DNA from: a virus
Taxonomy: Duplodnaviria > Caudoviricetes
DNA: 64,000 nucleotides
IMG/VR virus record: IMGVR_UViG_3300011832_000001
Span: 1-64,000 of that record
Direction: 5' to 3' (one strand)
The notes beneath the pieces were generated by a model. That model saw only the letters and a program-made list of their open reading frames with translations. It ran no database searches and was not told the DNA's origin. Position numbers and translations under genes: made by a program. Positions 2,732 through 63,893 of the stretch are shown here, one piece after another (the first letter of the stretch is position 1; every line of letters starts with the position of its first letter).

Positions 2732-3025
2732 ATGGGTAAAAAATTCACAAAGATTCGCAAATGGGCAGAACAGGAAGGAATTACTTTGGTTGATACGTCA
2801 GAAAATTCAATTCAAGTTCGATATGCAGAAGACCTCTGCTTTAAGATTTCTCATCGTGAGAGTTCAGCGTTTATGAGTATTCATGGATGGGCAGGAGAAC
2901 GAGGGGGATTGTATTTAGGATTTAACACATCACGATTCTTTTCTCCTACATGGTATCCAACTCAAAAAGATATTATCGCTACAATGAAACGTAAAATTGA
3001 ACAACACAAGGAGAATACAAAATGA
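2732..3025 (+). CDS. Hypothetical early protein, paralog of 2375..2668
   Basis: Same length (97 aa) and shared motifs; GAGGAG RBS. Confidence 0.85.
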   Translation: MGKKFTKIRKWAEQEGITLVDTSENSIQVRYAEDLCFKISHRESSAFMSIHGWAGERGGLYLGFNTSRFFSPTWYPTQKDIIATMKRKIEQHKENTK

Positions 3026-13351: not shown

Positions 13352-13382
13352 AGGGGAGATTTAAACTCCCCTTTTATTTTTT
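13352..13382 (+). terminator. Intrinsic terminator
   Basis: AGGGGAG/CTCCCCT stem with T tract. Confidence 0.8.
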
Positions 13383-13399
13383 GAAAGGGATGAATAAAA

Positions 13400-14107
13400 T
13401 TGATTAAACGTATTTGCATTTCAATAATTGTCGTAGCATCTGTCGCTTTCATGTCGCTTTTCTTTCAATCATATACAAAGACACAAAAGTTGGAACAAAA
13501 GATTGAGTTACAAAAATTGACAATTGAAGAAATGAATAAGAAAGTGGATGCAATTGACGAGTCTACAAAAGACCGTGAAAGTAGATTGAAGGTTGTCGAA
13601 TCCAAAGTGAAATCATTAGAGAAGAAAAATGCTCTGTTGAAAAAAGAAAATGAGTCTCTAGAAAAGAAAATCGATAAGATTAATTAGAAGCGAAAGACTT
13701 CTTATGATGACTCTAAGAAGGTAAGAGTTAGTGTCGAAAAAGATGCAACTCCGAAGAAAGAAGCTAAATCCACACAGGATGAAAATAATTCTAAGGGATA
13801 TCCTATCGAAGTAACTGCTTACACCGCCTATTGTGCGGAAGGTTGCATAGGAATTACAGCTACAGGTATTGACGTTTCGAATACTTCGTGGTATAATGGA
13901 TATAAAGTTATCGCTACAGACCCAAATTTCATGGCTATGGGTGAAACAGGAACGATAATTTTTAATAATGGCTCATCAATACCTGTTATCGCAATGGATA
14001 CGGGAGGAGCTATCAACGGTAACAAAGTTGACTTATTGGTTGATAGCCATGAAGAAGCAATTCAGTTTGGAAGACAGTCAGCAAAACTAATTAAAAAGGA
14101 TGGTTGA
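13400..14107 (+). CDS. Secreted or membrane-anchored coiled coil plus 3D-domain cell-wall protein, interrupted by an in-frame TAG at 13685-13687
   Basis: Signal/TM and coiled coil, then TAG, then in-frame linker and 3D motifs EVTAYT..C..GC.GITATG, VIATDP, AMDTGGAINGNKVDLL, AIQFGRQ ending at TGA 14105-14107. Confidence 0.8.
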
Positions 14108-58500: not shown

Positions 58501-61500
58501 TGTGAGATATAATTCTTTTGAAGGTTTCTAATCATAGACTCAATACCTTGTTCGATTGAATCAAATGTGAAGAATGTTCTATTTCTAGAATCATACATTC
58601 CACCGACATTGTTTTTAGTTCTTAGAAGATTTGATGTTCCTCGACCTGTTTCCCACTGAGCAATAGCCATAGCCAATGCAGGGTCAACACCATACTTTTT
58701 ACCATACTTAGAGAACATACTTTCAGTTCCTGCTAGTTTTCCACCTAAGACACCTTTGTAGCTAGTATATGAACTAGAAGATGATGAAGAACTCATACCT
58801 GCTGAACTTGTATATCCTGTATCTGAAACACCATAGTTAACAAGTTTTCCTGTTTTGATTTGCTTTTGCATTTCATTTCTTTGGTCAACCATAAGTTTTA
58901 ATTCTTGTTTCAATAACTTAATTCTTGTTTCGATAGTCTTTCTGTAGCCTAAACTATGACTAGCATATCTAGACATTTGTTTATTCATTTTCTCTTGTGT
59001 TGTGTTGATTCTTTCAAGAGCTAATTGATATTTATTAGCTACGAAAGTTGCTCTTTCCATTTCTTTTTCAGCTTTATCCATAGCTTCCTGACGAGCTTCC
59101 GATGCTTCTTGCATCTTCTTATCTGATAATGCTTGACCATCTCTTAATTGAATATTAAATTCAGAAGAAGCTCTAGATTGAAGTTGAGCGACCTTAGCAA
59201 TTTGAGCATCAATATTTCCTGAGACCTCTCTTGCTTGATTGAAAGCCTTTTGACCTCTTACTGCATACTCTTCCCAATTCTCATTATCTGCTTCAATCAT
59301 TTGCTGAGCTGTGTTTACATAAGTTTTAAGAGCTTGAAGCTTAGCATTCATTGCTTCTAGAACCGCACTCGCATTTTCAAGTTCTGTCTTTGTAAGTTTT
59401 TGGCTCGCTGACATAGAAGCATTTGTATATTGCTGTTCAATTTGCCATAGGACATCATGAGCATCTTTAACAGCCATTAGAGCATTTACACGCTTGTACT
59501 GTTCATCTCTTGTGAATCCTTCTGCAATACCCAATTGTTCTGTAACATCTGCCAATTGAAGTCTTTGACTAGCGCTAAGTTCTTCCGCATTGATTAATTC
59601 ATAATACTGTTCAGCCAATTCTTCAAGTTTTAATCTTTGTTCCTGAGTGCCATTAATCATAGTATTCATTAACGCATCATAAAGCTCTCCTTGTTTAACA
59701 GCTCTATCCATAACCTCAGAAGTTATTTCTACCGCATCTGCGTATTCTTGAACCGATTCAACTTGTTCAGGGTCAATTCCTGATGCCTGTAATTTATTAG
59801 CCCAATCCATAGGAATATCATTCATCTTCTCAATTGTGCTAGAAAGAACTTGATATTCAATTTTCTCTTCTTTTGTTGCTTTTTTACTAGATATTTTTTG
59901 TTGCAGTTCTTGTCTTCTCATTATAGCTTGTTTCTTAGCTAAGTCTAGATTTTCTTTCATTGCATTTCTTTCTGCATTTGAAGAAGATAGGAATTTCTCT
60001 GCTGAGAAATCTTCATTGCTAAGAGATGAAATTTGATTGATTATATTCTCAATTAAAGCAGAGTTATCAGCCAAAGCGTTTGTTTTTTCTTTCTCTAAAT
60101 CAAGAGAAGCAAAAGCATTTGCAACGACACTTTGCATATTAGAATCCATTTCTTGATACGCCTGTGAAGTCTGAACTGTATTTACCAATCTTGTTCTAGC
60201 TAGGTTTAATTGTTGGTCTTCAAGATTTTTTCTTCTGTTTTCCAACATAGTAATTTCTGCAATTTGTTGTTTTGTTTCTTTATAAGCTCCCGTAGCCTGT
60301 TTTACATTATCTGAGCTTACTCCCGTAATTCCTGTAGATACCTTTTTATCTCCACTACTACCGTTTTCTTTTCTTGTTTCGTTTCTAAGTTCAATTTCTT
60401 CTTTTTTGTTTCTTTCGATTTCTTTAGTTAAGGCTTTATAAGAATCAGCTAATTCTTCATTTTCTTCCATTTTTTTGTAAAGAGCCATATCTCTAGCTAA
60501 TTCTAATGATGCTTTCATAGCTTCATTATTAGCTAAGATTGCACGACCTTCTGAGTCATGTCCAATTACTAATGAAGGGAATAATTGAGCCAATCTTTCT
60601 TTAGCTTCTGCAAGCTTTTTAGTTTGTTCTGTGCTTAGGTTTTCTTGTTCGCTAAGTTCATAATAAACATCAGTTGCGACTTTTACCTCACCTGCGTTTT
60701 GATTCAATGTTTGAGCCATTGCACCCATAGTGTTGTTGAACTCTTCTACTTTTTGTTTTGCTTCTGAGCTTTTTCTCATTAACCATTCAAATCCGAAGCT
60801 AATAGCACCAAGAGCTATCCCAACACCCAATGCAGATGCTAGACCTGTGAATGCACTTCTAAGACCTGCTAGAGCTAGCGTTGCTCCTTGTGAAGCTTTT
60901 GTCAATTTACCCATAGTTGTTGTTGTTTGTCCTAAGTTATTAGTTGTTTCACGAGAAACGACTAAACCTCCACCCGAAACATTTCCGAATCTAGAAGGAA
61001 GTTCTCTTTGAACATTTGCTTTTTGACCTGTAGCTACAGTTTTAGTTCCACCAACAAGTGTACCTTGAGCTGTGGCTTCCATAGCTTTCATAGTGTTTAG
61101 ATTCTGAACTAAGACACCTTGTGCTCCTTTTAGTTTTGCAATCCACTGACTCGTAAGACCGACAAGACCTGAGAAACTTAAAACTGTCTTATTAGAAATC
61201 TGCCACCAAACAGCTAATAATGCACCAATTGGAGCGATAATTGTAGGAAGTAGCCCAACAGTATCAACTATTTTAGAGAACCCTTTAATTAAGTCTCCTA
61301 CGATTTCAACCGCATTAATAAAAGCAGGTGTCAAGAAAGCATCTCCTAAAACAAGAGACATTTCAGTAAATAGGTTTTTCAATCTATTTTGACGAGCTTC
61401 TAGAGATTTTTGATAGTTGATATTCTCGTTAATTGCAGAACCGTATGAATTCATAGATGCTTCTACAGCACTTACTGCTTCATCTTGTTGTTGCATTAGA

Positions 61501-63893
61501 ATATTGAAACGTGCAATATGGTCACGACCTGCAAGAGCCATAGCCGTATTGTTTTGTTGTTCAGTTGTAAGTGTTCCCCACTTACCTGCGACCTCATCTA
61601 GAATATCTCCAACTTTTAAGAACTCGCCATTCATATCACGAGTTGCTACACCAATAGCTTCAAGAGCGCTTTCGCCACCTGAACTTAAAGTACGAGTGTA
61701 GATTGTTTTCAATGAACGACCGATTGTAGAACCTGCTTCACGAGTAATTTGACCGATAGCTGTAATGTCACCGATTACTTCATTCATCGAAACACCAACA
61801 GATACAGCAGAACCTGCCACTCTTGAAAGACCTTCTGCAAGTTGCTTAGAGCTTATAGAGAATTGGTTATCGACTTCGTTAATCGAGTCAACTACACGAA
61901 TAGCTTGCTCTTCTACAATACCAAAGGCTTTAGTAATAGATGTGATATACTCTGATGATTCAGTTGCATCTAAATCAGAAATGTTATTGAAAATCTGAGA
62001 TGCTTCTGTCATAGCCATCAATCCATCTCCACTGAAACCTTGTTTAGCAAAGTTTGTCATGATGTCAGTAACCTCTTGAATAGTATTACCTAATTCTTGA
62101 GCTTTGTCAATAGCACCCTCTAACATTCCTTCAAAGTTAGTGTCTGCATCAAGTACACGTTTCCATTCTGTCAATGCCTTATCGACATTTAGAATTTCTG
62201 TATACATATTTCTGAATGCATTAATTGTACCATAGATTGCAGTAGTTGCGATACCCCAAGTTGCAGTACGACCAATAGCGATAAGCATTTGTTGCATTTG
62301 ACTTAAATCACGGTTTGATAGACGTTGCATGGCTTCTCCAAGTTTGTTAACATCACCTGTAGCACCATTCATTTGGTATCTTGTAATCTTCCAAGATTTA
62401 TTATGTTTATCCATAGTTTTCGTTGAAAACTCATATACAGTTTGATTTAAATCATTAACCGATTTCTTGAATGAATACAATTGACCTTGTGGAAGAGATT
62501 GAGCGTATTTTTGAGTTGCATTTTGAATAGATGCATCATTACCCAATTGATAACCAACTCTTTGAAGACCCAATGTAGCACTAGCATCTTTTTCACCTGA
62601 TGCAATAGTTGCTCTAGCTTTATCTCTTTCCTGTCTCATCAGACGAAGTTCAGCAGTAACACGCTCTACATCAACAGCAGAAACTTTAGCACCTCTAGAA
62701 AGTCTATCGAAAACATCAACAGAATTTCTCATGCTTACGTTTCCTTCTCGACCAAAAGCTCTAAGTTGCTCTCTTAGAGTTTCGAAGTCTAATTTCATAG
62801 CTCTAAGTTTATTTCCTGCTTTTTCGAAACCATTGTTAAGACCTAATTTTGTGATTTCTTCACTAACGTCTTGGATACTTTCACGAGCTTCATTTCTCTG
62901 TCCTCTACCCATAGCAAATAGGCTTGCATTGTATTTATTGATGTTTTCATCTGTAAGATTACCTACACCTGCAACGGATGCTTGAGACCCATACATTGCT
63001 TGAGCCTTTTTCAAATCATTATATATTTTTATTTTTTGATGAGCGATTTTTTTAAAGTCAGCATACTCTTGTTGTTGAATAGATATTTTCTTTTTGATTT
63101 GATTTATCTCATCAATTGTTCTAGTTTTAGATATTCCTTGATTGAATGAATTCATATCATCTTTGTTAAGTTTACCACTTGTGTAGCTTTGCTCGATAAC
63201 TGCTCTAAGTTGTCTTCTAGCAATTACCAATTCTTTTAATTTTGCTTTTTGATTGTCAAGCTCACGGATAGACCTTGCTGTTGCAACTCTACTATCATCA
63301 GCGCCTTTTTCAACTACAAAATTAAGAGCCTTAGCTTCACCTTTTGCATTCTTTAAGTTTACAGTAAATCTTTGAAGCTCTTTGTTCCCATCAATGAATA
63401 GAGATTGCATATCTAAAGATGCGTTAAATCCTTTGAATTCTTTTTTTACTTTATTCAAAGTATTGTAAGCAACTTCCATATCATCTTTACCCATACCGAT
63501 AAGGTTTTGTAATCCACCTTTATTGCCATTTTTAGATGTGATTGTATTTTGCATACCTGTTTGAAGTTTTGCAACCTCAGCTTTTGCTTTCTTAATATCA
63601 GAAGCAGATACTTTAATCCCAACATCTGCTAAGTTTAATCCTAAGTTTTTAGTCGCTACAGCCCAAGCACTTCTGATTTGGGTTTGATTAAATTTAGCTC
63701 CAACCTTTACCTCAATATTTGGGATAGCTAAAAATCTATCTCTAATTTTTTTAATTAGACCTTTGTCAAGTCTAAAGTTATCGATTGTAACAGTTGCTTT
63801 GATACCATCTTTTAAGAACTGTTTAGGCTTTGCACCCATTTTAATGCTCTCAACGGTAAGCATTACAAAAGTTTGTTCATTTCTTCCGTCCAT
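55593..63893 (-). CDS. Tape measure protein with lysozyme-like and M23 peptidase domains (YomI/CwlP-like)
   Basis: 2766 aa; TP901-type core (INEVDN.F.ISS..LA.GL.R); GVDP.L..AIA..ETG and NNVGG motifs; HEAVD, YAHL and HLHYE motifs. Confidence 0.92.
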   Translation of the reverse strand: MDGRNEQTFVMLTVESIKMGAKPKQFLKDGIKATVTIDNFRLDKGLIKKIRDRFLAIPNIEVKVGAKFNQTQIRSAWAVATKNLGLNLADVGIKVSASDIKKAKAEVAKLQTGMQNTITSKNGNKGGLQNLIGMGKDDMEVAYNTLNKVKKEFKGFNASLDMQSLFIDGNKELQRFTVNLKNAKGEAKALNFVVEKGADDSRVATARSIRELDNQKAKLKELVIARRQLRAVIEQSYTSGKLNKDDMNSFNQGISKTRTIDEINQIKKKISIQQQEYADFKKIAHQKIKIYNDLKKAQAMYGSQASVAGVGNLTDENINKYNASLFAMGRGQRNEARESIQDVSEEITKLGLNNGFEKAGNKLRAMKLDFETLREQLRAFGREGNVSMRNSVDVFDRLSRGAKVSAVDVERVTAELRLMRQERDKARATIASGEKDASATLGLQRVGYQLGNDASIQNATQKYAQSLPQGQLYSFKKSVNDLNQTVYEFSTKTMDKHNKSWKITRYQMNGATGDVNKLGEAMQRLSNRDLSQMQQMLIAIGRTATWGIATTAIYGTINAFRNMYTEILNVDKALTEWKRVLDADTNFEGMLEGAIDKAQELGNTIQEVTDIMTNFAKQGFSGDGLMAMTEASQIFNNISDLDATESSEYITSITKAFGIVEEQAIRVVDSINEVDNQFSISSKQLAEGLSRVAGSAVSVGVSMNEVIGDITAIGQITREAGSTIGRSLKTIYTRTLSSGGESALEAIGVATRDMNGEFLKVGDILDEVAGKWGTLTTEQQNNTAMALAGRDHIARFNILMQQQDEAVSAVEASMNSYGSAINENINYQKSLEARQNRLKNLFTEMSLVLGDAFLTPAFINAVEIVGDLIKGFSKIVDTVGLLPTIIAPIGALLAVWWQISNKTVLSFSGLVGLTSQWIAKLKGAQGVLVQNLNTMKAMEATAQGTLVGGTKTVATGQKANVQRELPSRFGNVSGGGLVVSRETTNNLGQTTTTMGKLTKASQGATLALAGLRSAFTGLASALGVGIALGAISFGFEWLMRKSSEAKQKVEEFNNTMGAMAQTLNQNAGEVKVATDVYYELSEQENLSTEQTKKLAEAKERLAQLFPSLVIGHDSEGRAILANNEAMKASLELARDMALYKKMEENEELADSYKALTKEIERNKKEEIELRNETRKENGSSGDKKVSTGITGVSSDNVKQATGAYKETKQQIAEITMLENRRKNLEDQQLNLARTRLVNTVQTSQAYQEMDSNMQSVVANAFASLDLEKEKTNALADNSALIENIINQISSLSNEDFSAEKFLSSSNAERNAMKENLDLAKKQAIMRRQELQQKISSKKATKEEKIEYQVLSSTIEKMNDIPMDWANKLQASGIDPEQVESVQEYADAVEITSEVMDRAVKQGELYDALMNTMINGTQEQRLKLEELAEQYYELINAEELSASQRLQLADVTEQLGIAEGFTRDEQYKRVNALMAVKDAHDVLWQIEQQYTNASMSASQKLTKTELENASAVLEAMNAKLQALKTYVNTAQQMIEADNENWEEYAVRGQKAFNQAREVSGNIDAQIAKVAQLQSRASSEFNIQLRDGQALSDKKMQEASEARQEAMDKAEKEMERATFVANKYQLALERINTTQEKMNKQMSRYASHSLGYRKTIETRIKLLKQELKLMVDQRNEMQKQIKTGKLVNYGVSDTGYTSSAGMSSSSSSSSYTSYKGVLGGKLAGTESMFSKYGKKYGVDPALAMAIAQWETGRGTSNLLRTKNNVGGMYDSRNRTFFTFDSIEQGIESMIRNLQKNYISQGLKTIAQIQKKYAPTVGATNDPKGLNNNWTKGVSSMLSQIKKGTTSGTVKISNGDTIGTGFRVPEGWGGARTASFGQRRSYGRHEAVDIDGYKGQRLDSNVNGTVVHAGGANNSIGIPSQYGKTIVIKAGSYYHIYAHLDGISVKKGQKVGVGQKIGVIGNTGNVVASGGGDGSHLHYEVRSKLGRWGQNLVDPTGFANKARTKQKTFNYTTGGGGVQVGAGTYTGDGAQEKANTAQAFHDAKMDVEGQQQAIYQKQAELDQLMMDWLQSLAEDLDRRISKSQAVVERKRGLQEIYQTGGNAWDRLQSNIINATRTTFNEQQKAMNALMKQRRRKDLSGAMKSFLDDKIDELRVQMEETSRAIYTEWFNWLNGNMALYDYRQGINDSNAQFYQGKTQGYANWTKLYRDNMGKSNNMTRASLKEEQNRLAYLEREYAKSGRYSYEQKSQIQAMIKASRLKVQEYENQLKEVAVQLVQSRIAEFDRSMADAMRVQSNRLRSYDTSISRIDKDDNLKYLSELTPLIGNKDTALKAQLKLQQQMSDEYYKQLKNLKWGTEAYEELRQKWIDSQEAVKDLTDAIYDNQQALKDAQKEVSASIVESMKDMFESMRDAELKALDDASKAKEKEYRKELERLDELLEKEEEAGQKRIETIEKQRESYNKMIDDRIKGMNREREAENHQKSMTKLYEQEAELKNKISILALDDSFEAKKRREELMKELKDLQEQISETQSEWDFDKQIEGIEDGRDVANEQFDDAVERENKYLEELRKSIEAQREALDDEMEKFNETLDEKREAINKYYDDIANHQIEWNKMQKEMLEGNFTTVNEYLEKLNSGASDAFKELLGGFPDDFKNLGTSISDTLANLGNILQNNILRNLADMEKLLAEISKSTDGNKGSTPIDVVPNMINPTSMVSLSTAGASNVVANAGSVNQFGDISLSFPNVTDSTNVPDIIEKIMIELQKKYGIGI

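Follow-up and report, generated by a model that had tools for sequence, protein, structure and literature searches.

An in-frame amber codon conserved between the stalk and the catalytic domain of a putative phage cell-wall enzyme

The DNA analysed here (the window) is the first 64 kb of the 123,866-bp IMG/VR record G000, which has a G+C content of 34%. Within it, an open reading frame for a short anchored coiled coil ends in TAG, and the same frame then continues, open, through a complete 3D domain. The initial annotation proposed programmed amber readthrough at this junction, with a recent nonsense mutation as the alternative. The question raised by the locus is whether these are two reading frames, a damaged gene, or one gene that is translated across its amber codon, and, if the last, what purpose the amber codon might serve.

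The interrupted gene and its predicted product

The features of the locus, all on the plus strand, are listed below (window coordinates).

13352–13382, + strand: intrinsic terminator-like hairpin followed by a T run, directly upstream of the gene
13384–13390, + strand: SD-like sequence AAAGGGA, 9 nt ahead of the TTG start (sequence read)
13400–13684, + strand: short product of 95 aa, with an N-terminal hydrophobic anchor (about residues 4–22) and a coiled coil (ORF, profile search)
13685–13687, + strand: in-frame amber codon in the context AAT TAG AAG (sequence read)
13688–13771, + strand: basic linker, the first 28 codons past the TAG, predicted to be disordered (dN/dS, pLDDT)
13698–13720, + strand: candidate RNA hairpin with a 7-bp stem (CUUCUUA/UAAGAAG) and a 9-nt loop, starting 10 nt past the TAG (inverted repeat)
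13799–14095, + strand: 3D / Sps-type double-psi beta-barrel domain, residues 134–232 (Pfam, YuiC sequence and fold matches, AlphaFold2)
13869–13897, + strand: sigma-A-type extended −10 promoter-like site (TTGACG, 17 nt, TG-n-TATAAT; 11/12 matches) inside the 3D coding sequence
14105–14107, + strand: TGA stop of the long product (sequence read)

Translation from the TTG at 13400 gives a 95-codon ORF that ends at the TAG (13685–13687), past which 139 further codons remain open in the same frame up to the TGA, making a full read-through product of 235 aa. At this base composition, 139 consecutive codons would stay open by chance with a probability of about 3e-5. The first in-frame ATG, GTG or TTG 3′ of the TAG is the ATG at 13931, 81 codons on and inside the 3D domain. 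The coordinates given in the initial annotation were reproduced, as was its statement that the downstream part has no start of its own, the first ATG falling within the domain.

Profile searches with the anchor and coiled-coil part returned weak coiled-coil families only. The 139-residue part matches the Pfam 3D family (PF06725; E 1.7e-10, 41.4 bits against a gathering cut-off of 23.8), and its 3D domain also matches the YuiC structures 4wlk and 4wjt by sequence. An AlphaFold2 model, built on 30 homologues, predicts a single long helix (residues 2–112), a linker with pLDDT below 50 (residues 102–130, overlapping the end of the helix) and a barrel (residues 134–232) with pLDDT of about 90. The top Foldseek matches of the model are 4wjt, 4wlk and 4wli, all YuiC (E 3e-5), a stationary-phase survival protein of B. 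subtilis, followed by entries for MltA-type lytic transglycosylases. Three aspartates (D174, D200 and D211) are invariant among the 30 homologues and align to the D...DTG...D pattern of YuiC, the last two being spaced 11 apart, and the T-x-Y motif is present as T-A-Y. The conserved aspartates of YuiC are D129, D151 and D162, of which D162 is catalytic (PMC4499186). Given the domain match, the YuiC fold and the intact Asp triad and T-x-Y motif, the long product would be an intact membrane-anchored, stalked, peptidoglycan-cleaving enzyme of the lytic-transglycosylase type (YuiC/Sps).

Homologues occur as single proteins in SPO1 (gp2.8), SPbeta-like phages (YorM-like), Listeria phages and many Bacillales genomes, with a 3D domain joined by a linker to an N-terminal anchor or coiled coil. 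Three PHROG profiles (6631, 18207 and 20590) each align to the read-through translation as a single match across the TAG position. The gene thus resembles YuiC/Sps proteins such as B. subtilis YuiC, SPbeta YorM and SPO1 gp2.8 in its Pfam family, its three aspartates and T-x-Y motif, YuiC being the best fold match, and in an architecture that is common among phages (PMC4499186, PMC1084345). The known YuiC/Sps members, however, are single uninterrupted ORFs, whereas the clade described here has a conserved amber codon at the border of stalk and linker, a conserved linker specific to the clade, and a promoter-like site within the domain.

Conservation of the amber codon and of the frame beyond it

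Scans of IMG/VR recovered one relative only, L003, which comes from a 128.6-kb record (G001) with direct terminal repeats. G000 and G001 share the gene order Sak4-like AAA_24 gene, terminator, amber gene and phrog_1485 gene. The genes flanking the amber gene in L003 are only 50% and 35% identical to those of the window, and dS between the two sequences is about 1 or more, with synonymous sites near saturation. The initial annotation had suggested a search of relatives for a stop at the same junction, and L003 carries a TAG (2998–3000) at exactly the aligned codon, again flanked as AAT TAG AAG. Other searches added little: the phage GenBank collection gave no match by megablast and only relatives below 60% identity by tblastn, a metagenome scan found distant 3D proteins only, and a genome-contig scan with the collection protein P0029 gave no match.

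The DNA-level comparison is accordingly one of two sequences, the window and L003, by Nei-Gojobori counting. The coiled coil 5′ of the TAG is strongly diverged (dN 0.62). Over the 139 codons 3′ of the TAG, the dN/dS that the initial annotation had wanted measured is 0.18, indicating purifying selection, and in the 28 codons of the linker it falls to 0.04 (about 8 synonymous and 2 non-synonymous differences), making the linker the most conserved stretch of the gene despite its predicted disorder. Differences just 3′ of the TAG are mostly synonymous third-position changes, the single indel past the TAG is in frame, and no stops have been gained in either lineage. Conservation of the protein frame sets in at the codon adjoining the TAG, and with no start codon available at that point, ribosomes must come from upstream. 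A stop conserved in a diverged relative, purifying selection downstream of it and the lack of an independent start are the comparative hallmarks of a readthrough site.

The conserved TAG and the selection downstream of it together rule out that the stop arose by a recent nonsense mutation or a sequencing error, and that the downstream part is a decaying remnant. The first of these, the alternative offered by the initial annotation, is rejected, as L003 keeps the TAG across a dS of about 1. An error of sequencing or assembly in this record can be virtually dismissed, the same TAG being present in an independent IMG/VR genome and 95-aa calls coming from independent Logan assemblies. Frameshifting, slippage, hopping and an intron were also rejected: there is no conserved slippery run, the frame is unchanged across the TAG, and the very next codon is already within conserved coding sequence.

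Further copies of the gene were found in a protein collection, where they fall into three sublineages: window-like, P0028-like (76% identical) and L003-like. Split gene calls occur in each of them. P0026 (99% identical) and P0027 (87%) are exactly 95 aa long and end at the same Asn, and the C-terminal fragments are 58–116 aa long and begin at differing internal codons. The contigs with split calls include ones of 123,723, 125,786, 79,659, 29,983 and 23,963 bp. Another gene on the 125,786-bp contig has Glu where G000 has TAG, so this contig was called under the standard code, and the fragmentary 3D gene on it is therefore a real interruption. The split calls in three sublineages, together with L003, support the original view of one gene interrupted by an amber codon.

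The separate 58–116-aa fragments given by gene callers, and the strong promoter-like site within the 3D domain, could also be taken to mean that only the 95-aa protein is functional and that the 3D part is an untranslated remnant or is made from an internal start. This is very improbable. The low dN/dS is maintained at a dS of about 1 with the frame open in both phages, and conservation begins at the first codon past the TAG, where no start codon exists. The starts of the fragments differ among lineages (ATG, GTG or TTG as Met, at different residues), and a transcript from the internal promoter would be without the T-A-Y catalytic motif and any export signal.

The collection also holds seven fused proteins (P0002, P0025, P0028, P0140, P0029, P0141 and P0142) of 191–248 aa, which have Gln exactly at the TAG site and are otherwise identical in sequence to the split forms. 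The contigs of the seven fused records are no longer than 8.9 kb, and six are shorter than 2.7 kb, while contigs of at least 24 kb are all split (Mann-Whitney p 0.0004, fused versus split). The TAG=Gln products of the window and of L003 were themselves absent from the collection on exact look-up. The Gln may stand for a TAG translated by a gene caller on a TAG=Gln model, or for real CAG codons. We lean modestly towards the gene caller, because the fused records are on the smallest contigs, P0002 and P0025 start at another codon than P0026 and P0027 do, and nothing else in the sequence separates fused from split forms. Were the Gln records real CAG codons, TAG would not be fixed across the clade; under either reading it remains deeply conserved in contigs of genome length. 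In either case, the databases hold inconsistent versions of the same protein, split into fragments by the caller or, on short contigs, with the TAG silently given as Gln.

Real CAG codons would suggest a site that flips repeatedly between CAG (Gln, enzyme on) and TAG (off or low), with TAG near-neutral or selected as an off-state. Such flipping would account for the presence, within each of the three sublineages, of fused Gln proteins beside split forms of nearly the same sequence. Paenibacillus provides a documented precedent, with orthologous codons that alternate between TAG and CAG and show reversals (PMC7918605), and a recent GAG-to-TAG change elsewhere in G000 (described below) shows that changes of this kind do occur here. 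Yet no fused form lies on a contig above 8.9 kb, as would be expected if short fragments had led a gene caller to adopt a TAG=Gln model; the different start codon of P0002 and P0025 points the same way, and at least three independent flips would be needed at one nucleotide between otherwise identical sequences. Repeated flipping is therefore considered unlikely, and even if it were true, selection downstream of the TAG in TAG-bearing genomes over a dS of about 1 would still require expression.

Use of TAG across the phage genomes

The initial annotation had noted that, among roughly 75 genes called, the amber gene was the only one ending in TAG. The pattern is stronger across the whole 124-kb record, where the ORFs of at least 100 aa end in TAA (72) or TGA (36) and none of the 108 ends in TAG. 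The corresponding counts for G001 are 78 TAA, 34 TGA and 2 TAG (n = 114), and both TAG cases are artefactual, one being the N-terminal ORF of the amber gene itself and the other a spurious ORF over tRNA genes. By comparison, the annotated genes in a 50-kb stretch of SPO1 end in 23 TAA, 11 TGA and 13 TAG (n = 47; Fisher p 5e-8 for TAG terminators, phage versus SPO1). The TAG trinucleotide itself is not rare in G000 or G001, and a plausible small gene in G000 (108074–108331) does end in TAG. Because TAG has been cleared from the ends of the other long genes, UAG is probably an unreliable or modified stop signal during infection, and not just at the amber site. Low TAG use could also simply mirror the usage of the host.

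No tRNA with a CUA anticodon was found among the 22 tRNAs of G000 or the 24 distinct anticodons of G001 (ARAGORN, Rfam tRNA model), and neither genome yielded an RF1/RF2 homologue or an RF-1 or PCRF domain. Both phages encode tRNA-Gln(UUG), Tyr, Lys and Trp. The tRNA-Gln(UUG) of G000 (90105–90182) is atypical: it is 78 nt long, its D stem has 3 bp, its variable loop is long and U-rich, and its CCA end is not encoded. A tRNA-like sequence just 3′ of tRNA-Met in G000 (91935–92005) was considered as a suppressor and rejected: it has a CAT anticodon, was detected by ARAGORN at relaxed settings only, and scores 25 bits, below the Rfam cut-off. It may be a degenerate Met/Ile2-type tRNA. Insertion of pyrrolysine at the UAG was also considered; the Bacillales-type phage relatives argue against it.

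Genome-wide recoding of TAG was rejected, as reading TAG as sense lengthens no long ORFs other than the amber gene and one at a second in-frame TAG. This second site lies outside the window on the minus strand of G000 (115095–115097; L044:1596–1598), in the context AAC TAG CTT. The ORF that it ends has 72 codons and a strong ribosome-binding site, and the 390 in-frame codons that follow have none. The protein spanning it is acidic and has no Pfam or PHROG match. It was rejected as a further recoding site: its close relatives P0146 and P0147 have Glu at this position and the G001 homologue is uninterrupted, and for these reasons the TAG is read as a recent GAG-to-TAG change. An apparent third case, at 61414–61749, is antisense to a 2766-aa gene and was discarded.

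In low GC content, depletion of TAG terminators and an in-frame TAG in a lysis-related gene, the clade resembles code-15 phages (Lak, crAss-like and other gut phages). In code-15 phages, however, 26–71% of the genes contain in-frame stops and suppressor tRNAs are usually encoded, while the present clade has a single conserved site and yielded no suppressor tRNA. Of the features expected of a code-15 phage, depletion of TAG terminators alone was found; a suppressor tRNA, an RF domain and more than one conserved site were not. The route proposed for recoding begins with depletion of a stop codon, followed by the appearance of in-frame stops in structural and lysis genes, and recoded stops have been proposed to regulate the timing of lytic genes (bioRxiv 10.1101/2021.08.26.457843). 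The purge of TAG as a terminator and the wall-lytic nature of the recoded gene both match this gut-phage path, and UAG might then be read efficiently as an amino acid, in an incipient code-15-like state where essentially only the 235-aa protein is made. Such full reassignment is distinctly improbable in view of the missing suppressor tRNA in G000 and G001, the single conserved in-frame TAG per genome, and the survival of at least one plausible small gene that terminates in TAG (108074–108331).

Sequence context and a proposed translational gate

The candidate hairpin past the TAG has arms that are identical in the window and L003, although they contain five synonymous positions, and the differences near it fall in the spacer and the loop. 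Folded alone, it has a free energy of −6.7 kcal/mol and a z-score of about −2; z ranges from −0.7 to −2, a weak signal, and the minimum-energy fold of longer segments prefers other hairpins over 13698–13720. In P0028 and P0140, the 28-residue linker differs at two residues only: a Ser-to-Pro replacement, which requires C in place of U13700, and a Lys-to-Glu replacement, which requires G in place of A13718. The two bases are pairing partners, so that a U-A pair becomes C-G. The chance of such a compensatory pair is about 0.004 given one stem change, for a single event read back from proteins, and a palindromic DNA site would covary likewise. A linker that is predicted to be disordered and yet is the best-conserved part of the gene fits a combined RNA and protein constraint, and the hairpin is suggestive of a 3′ stimulatory element.

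The terminator of the upstream gene finishes 18 nt ahead of the start codon, leaving no room for a promoter between them, and L003 has the same arrangement (terminator at 2619–2643). The promoter-like site inside the 3D coding sequence has an identical hexamer pair at the homologous place in L003 (3197–3225), and it probably drives the next genes, which are DUF1599-like and Mom-like. With a terminator just upstream and a promoter only inside the gene, the amber gene is probably transcribed only by read-through of the terminator. The internal site overlaps residues specific to the clade (I-D-V ... W-Y-N-G). Both phages also have a tiny ORF, opening with ATG AAT AAA, that lies directly at the ribosome-binding site and overlaps the main start (13390–13407 in the window, about 2669–2683 in L003); it may be coincidental.

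Taken together, we consider it probable, with moderate confidence, that a conserved in-frame UAG, decoded at some level, gates a stalked wall enzyme. A single gene would encode a membrane anchor and coiled-coil stalk, then the UAG, then the 3D-domain catalytic head. Ribosomes that stop at the UAG would produce an abundant 95-aa anchor-and-stalk protein, and those that decode it, probably with a near-cognate tRNA such as tRNA-Gln, would produce a scarce or delayed 235-aa enzyme. The short and long forms could possibly assemble together through the coiled coil. The UAG would then act as a translational gate that holds the wall-cutting form at a low level, or times its appearance, and would be one of three layers of scarcity, alongside transcription by terminator read-through and, in the window, a TTG start. 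Readthrough itself, its efficiency, the residue inserted and the role of the hairpin are what we infer from the conserved sequences.

Programmed readthrough is a textbook mechanism in RNA viruses, and the A1 protein of Q-beta is a C-terminally extended minor form made by readthrough of an in-frame stop. To our knowledge, it is hardly documented in dsDNA phages, or in bacterial translation outside selenocysteine and pyrrolysine. The UAG of murine leukaemia virus (MuLV) gag-pol similarly stands in frame between an abundant N-terminal product and a minor form, extended C-terminally by an enzyme, and the UAG and the purine-rich spacer of about 10 nt of MuLV-type sites have counterparts at the phage locus, the stem-loop a candidate one. 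UAG is usually decoded by a near-cognate tRNA-Gln (PMC7026636). Unlike MuLV, this is a dsDNA phage of a Gram-positive-type host, its hairpin is weak (7 bp) with no proven pseudoknot, genome-wide avoidance of TAG is a feature of the phage only, and readthrough is proposed from sequence.

A second comparison can be made with conserved in-frame stops in bacteria (Belinky et al. 2021, PMC7918605), in which an orthologous TAG likewise lies in frame, dN/dS is well below 1 and TAG may alternate with CAG. Most of the bacterial cases are shallow, with dS of about 0.003–0.17 (PMC7918605), whereas the stop described here persists across saturated synonymous divergence, lies at a domain border and is followed by conserved 3′ sequence.

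More tentatively, the clade may have eliminated UAG as a terminator of long genes while retaining one ancient UAG gate, which would mark either the earliest observed stage of recoding or a disabling of RF1-dependent termination. If the phage or the host disables RF1-dependent termination during infection, the enzyme would appear only once UAG stops terminating. The amber gene would offer a minimal, experimentally tractable model of how stop-codon recoding begins in phages, and would also serve as a model for the proposal that recoded stops time lytic functions.
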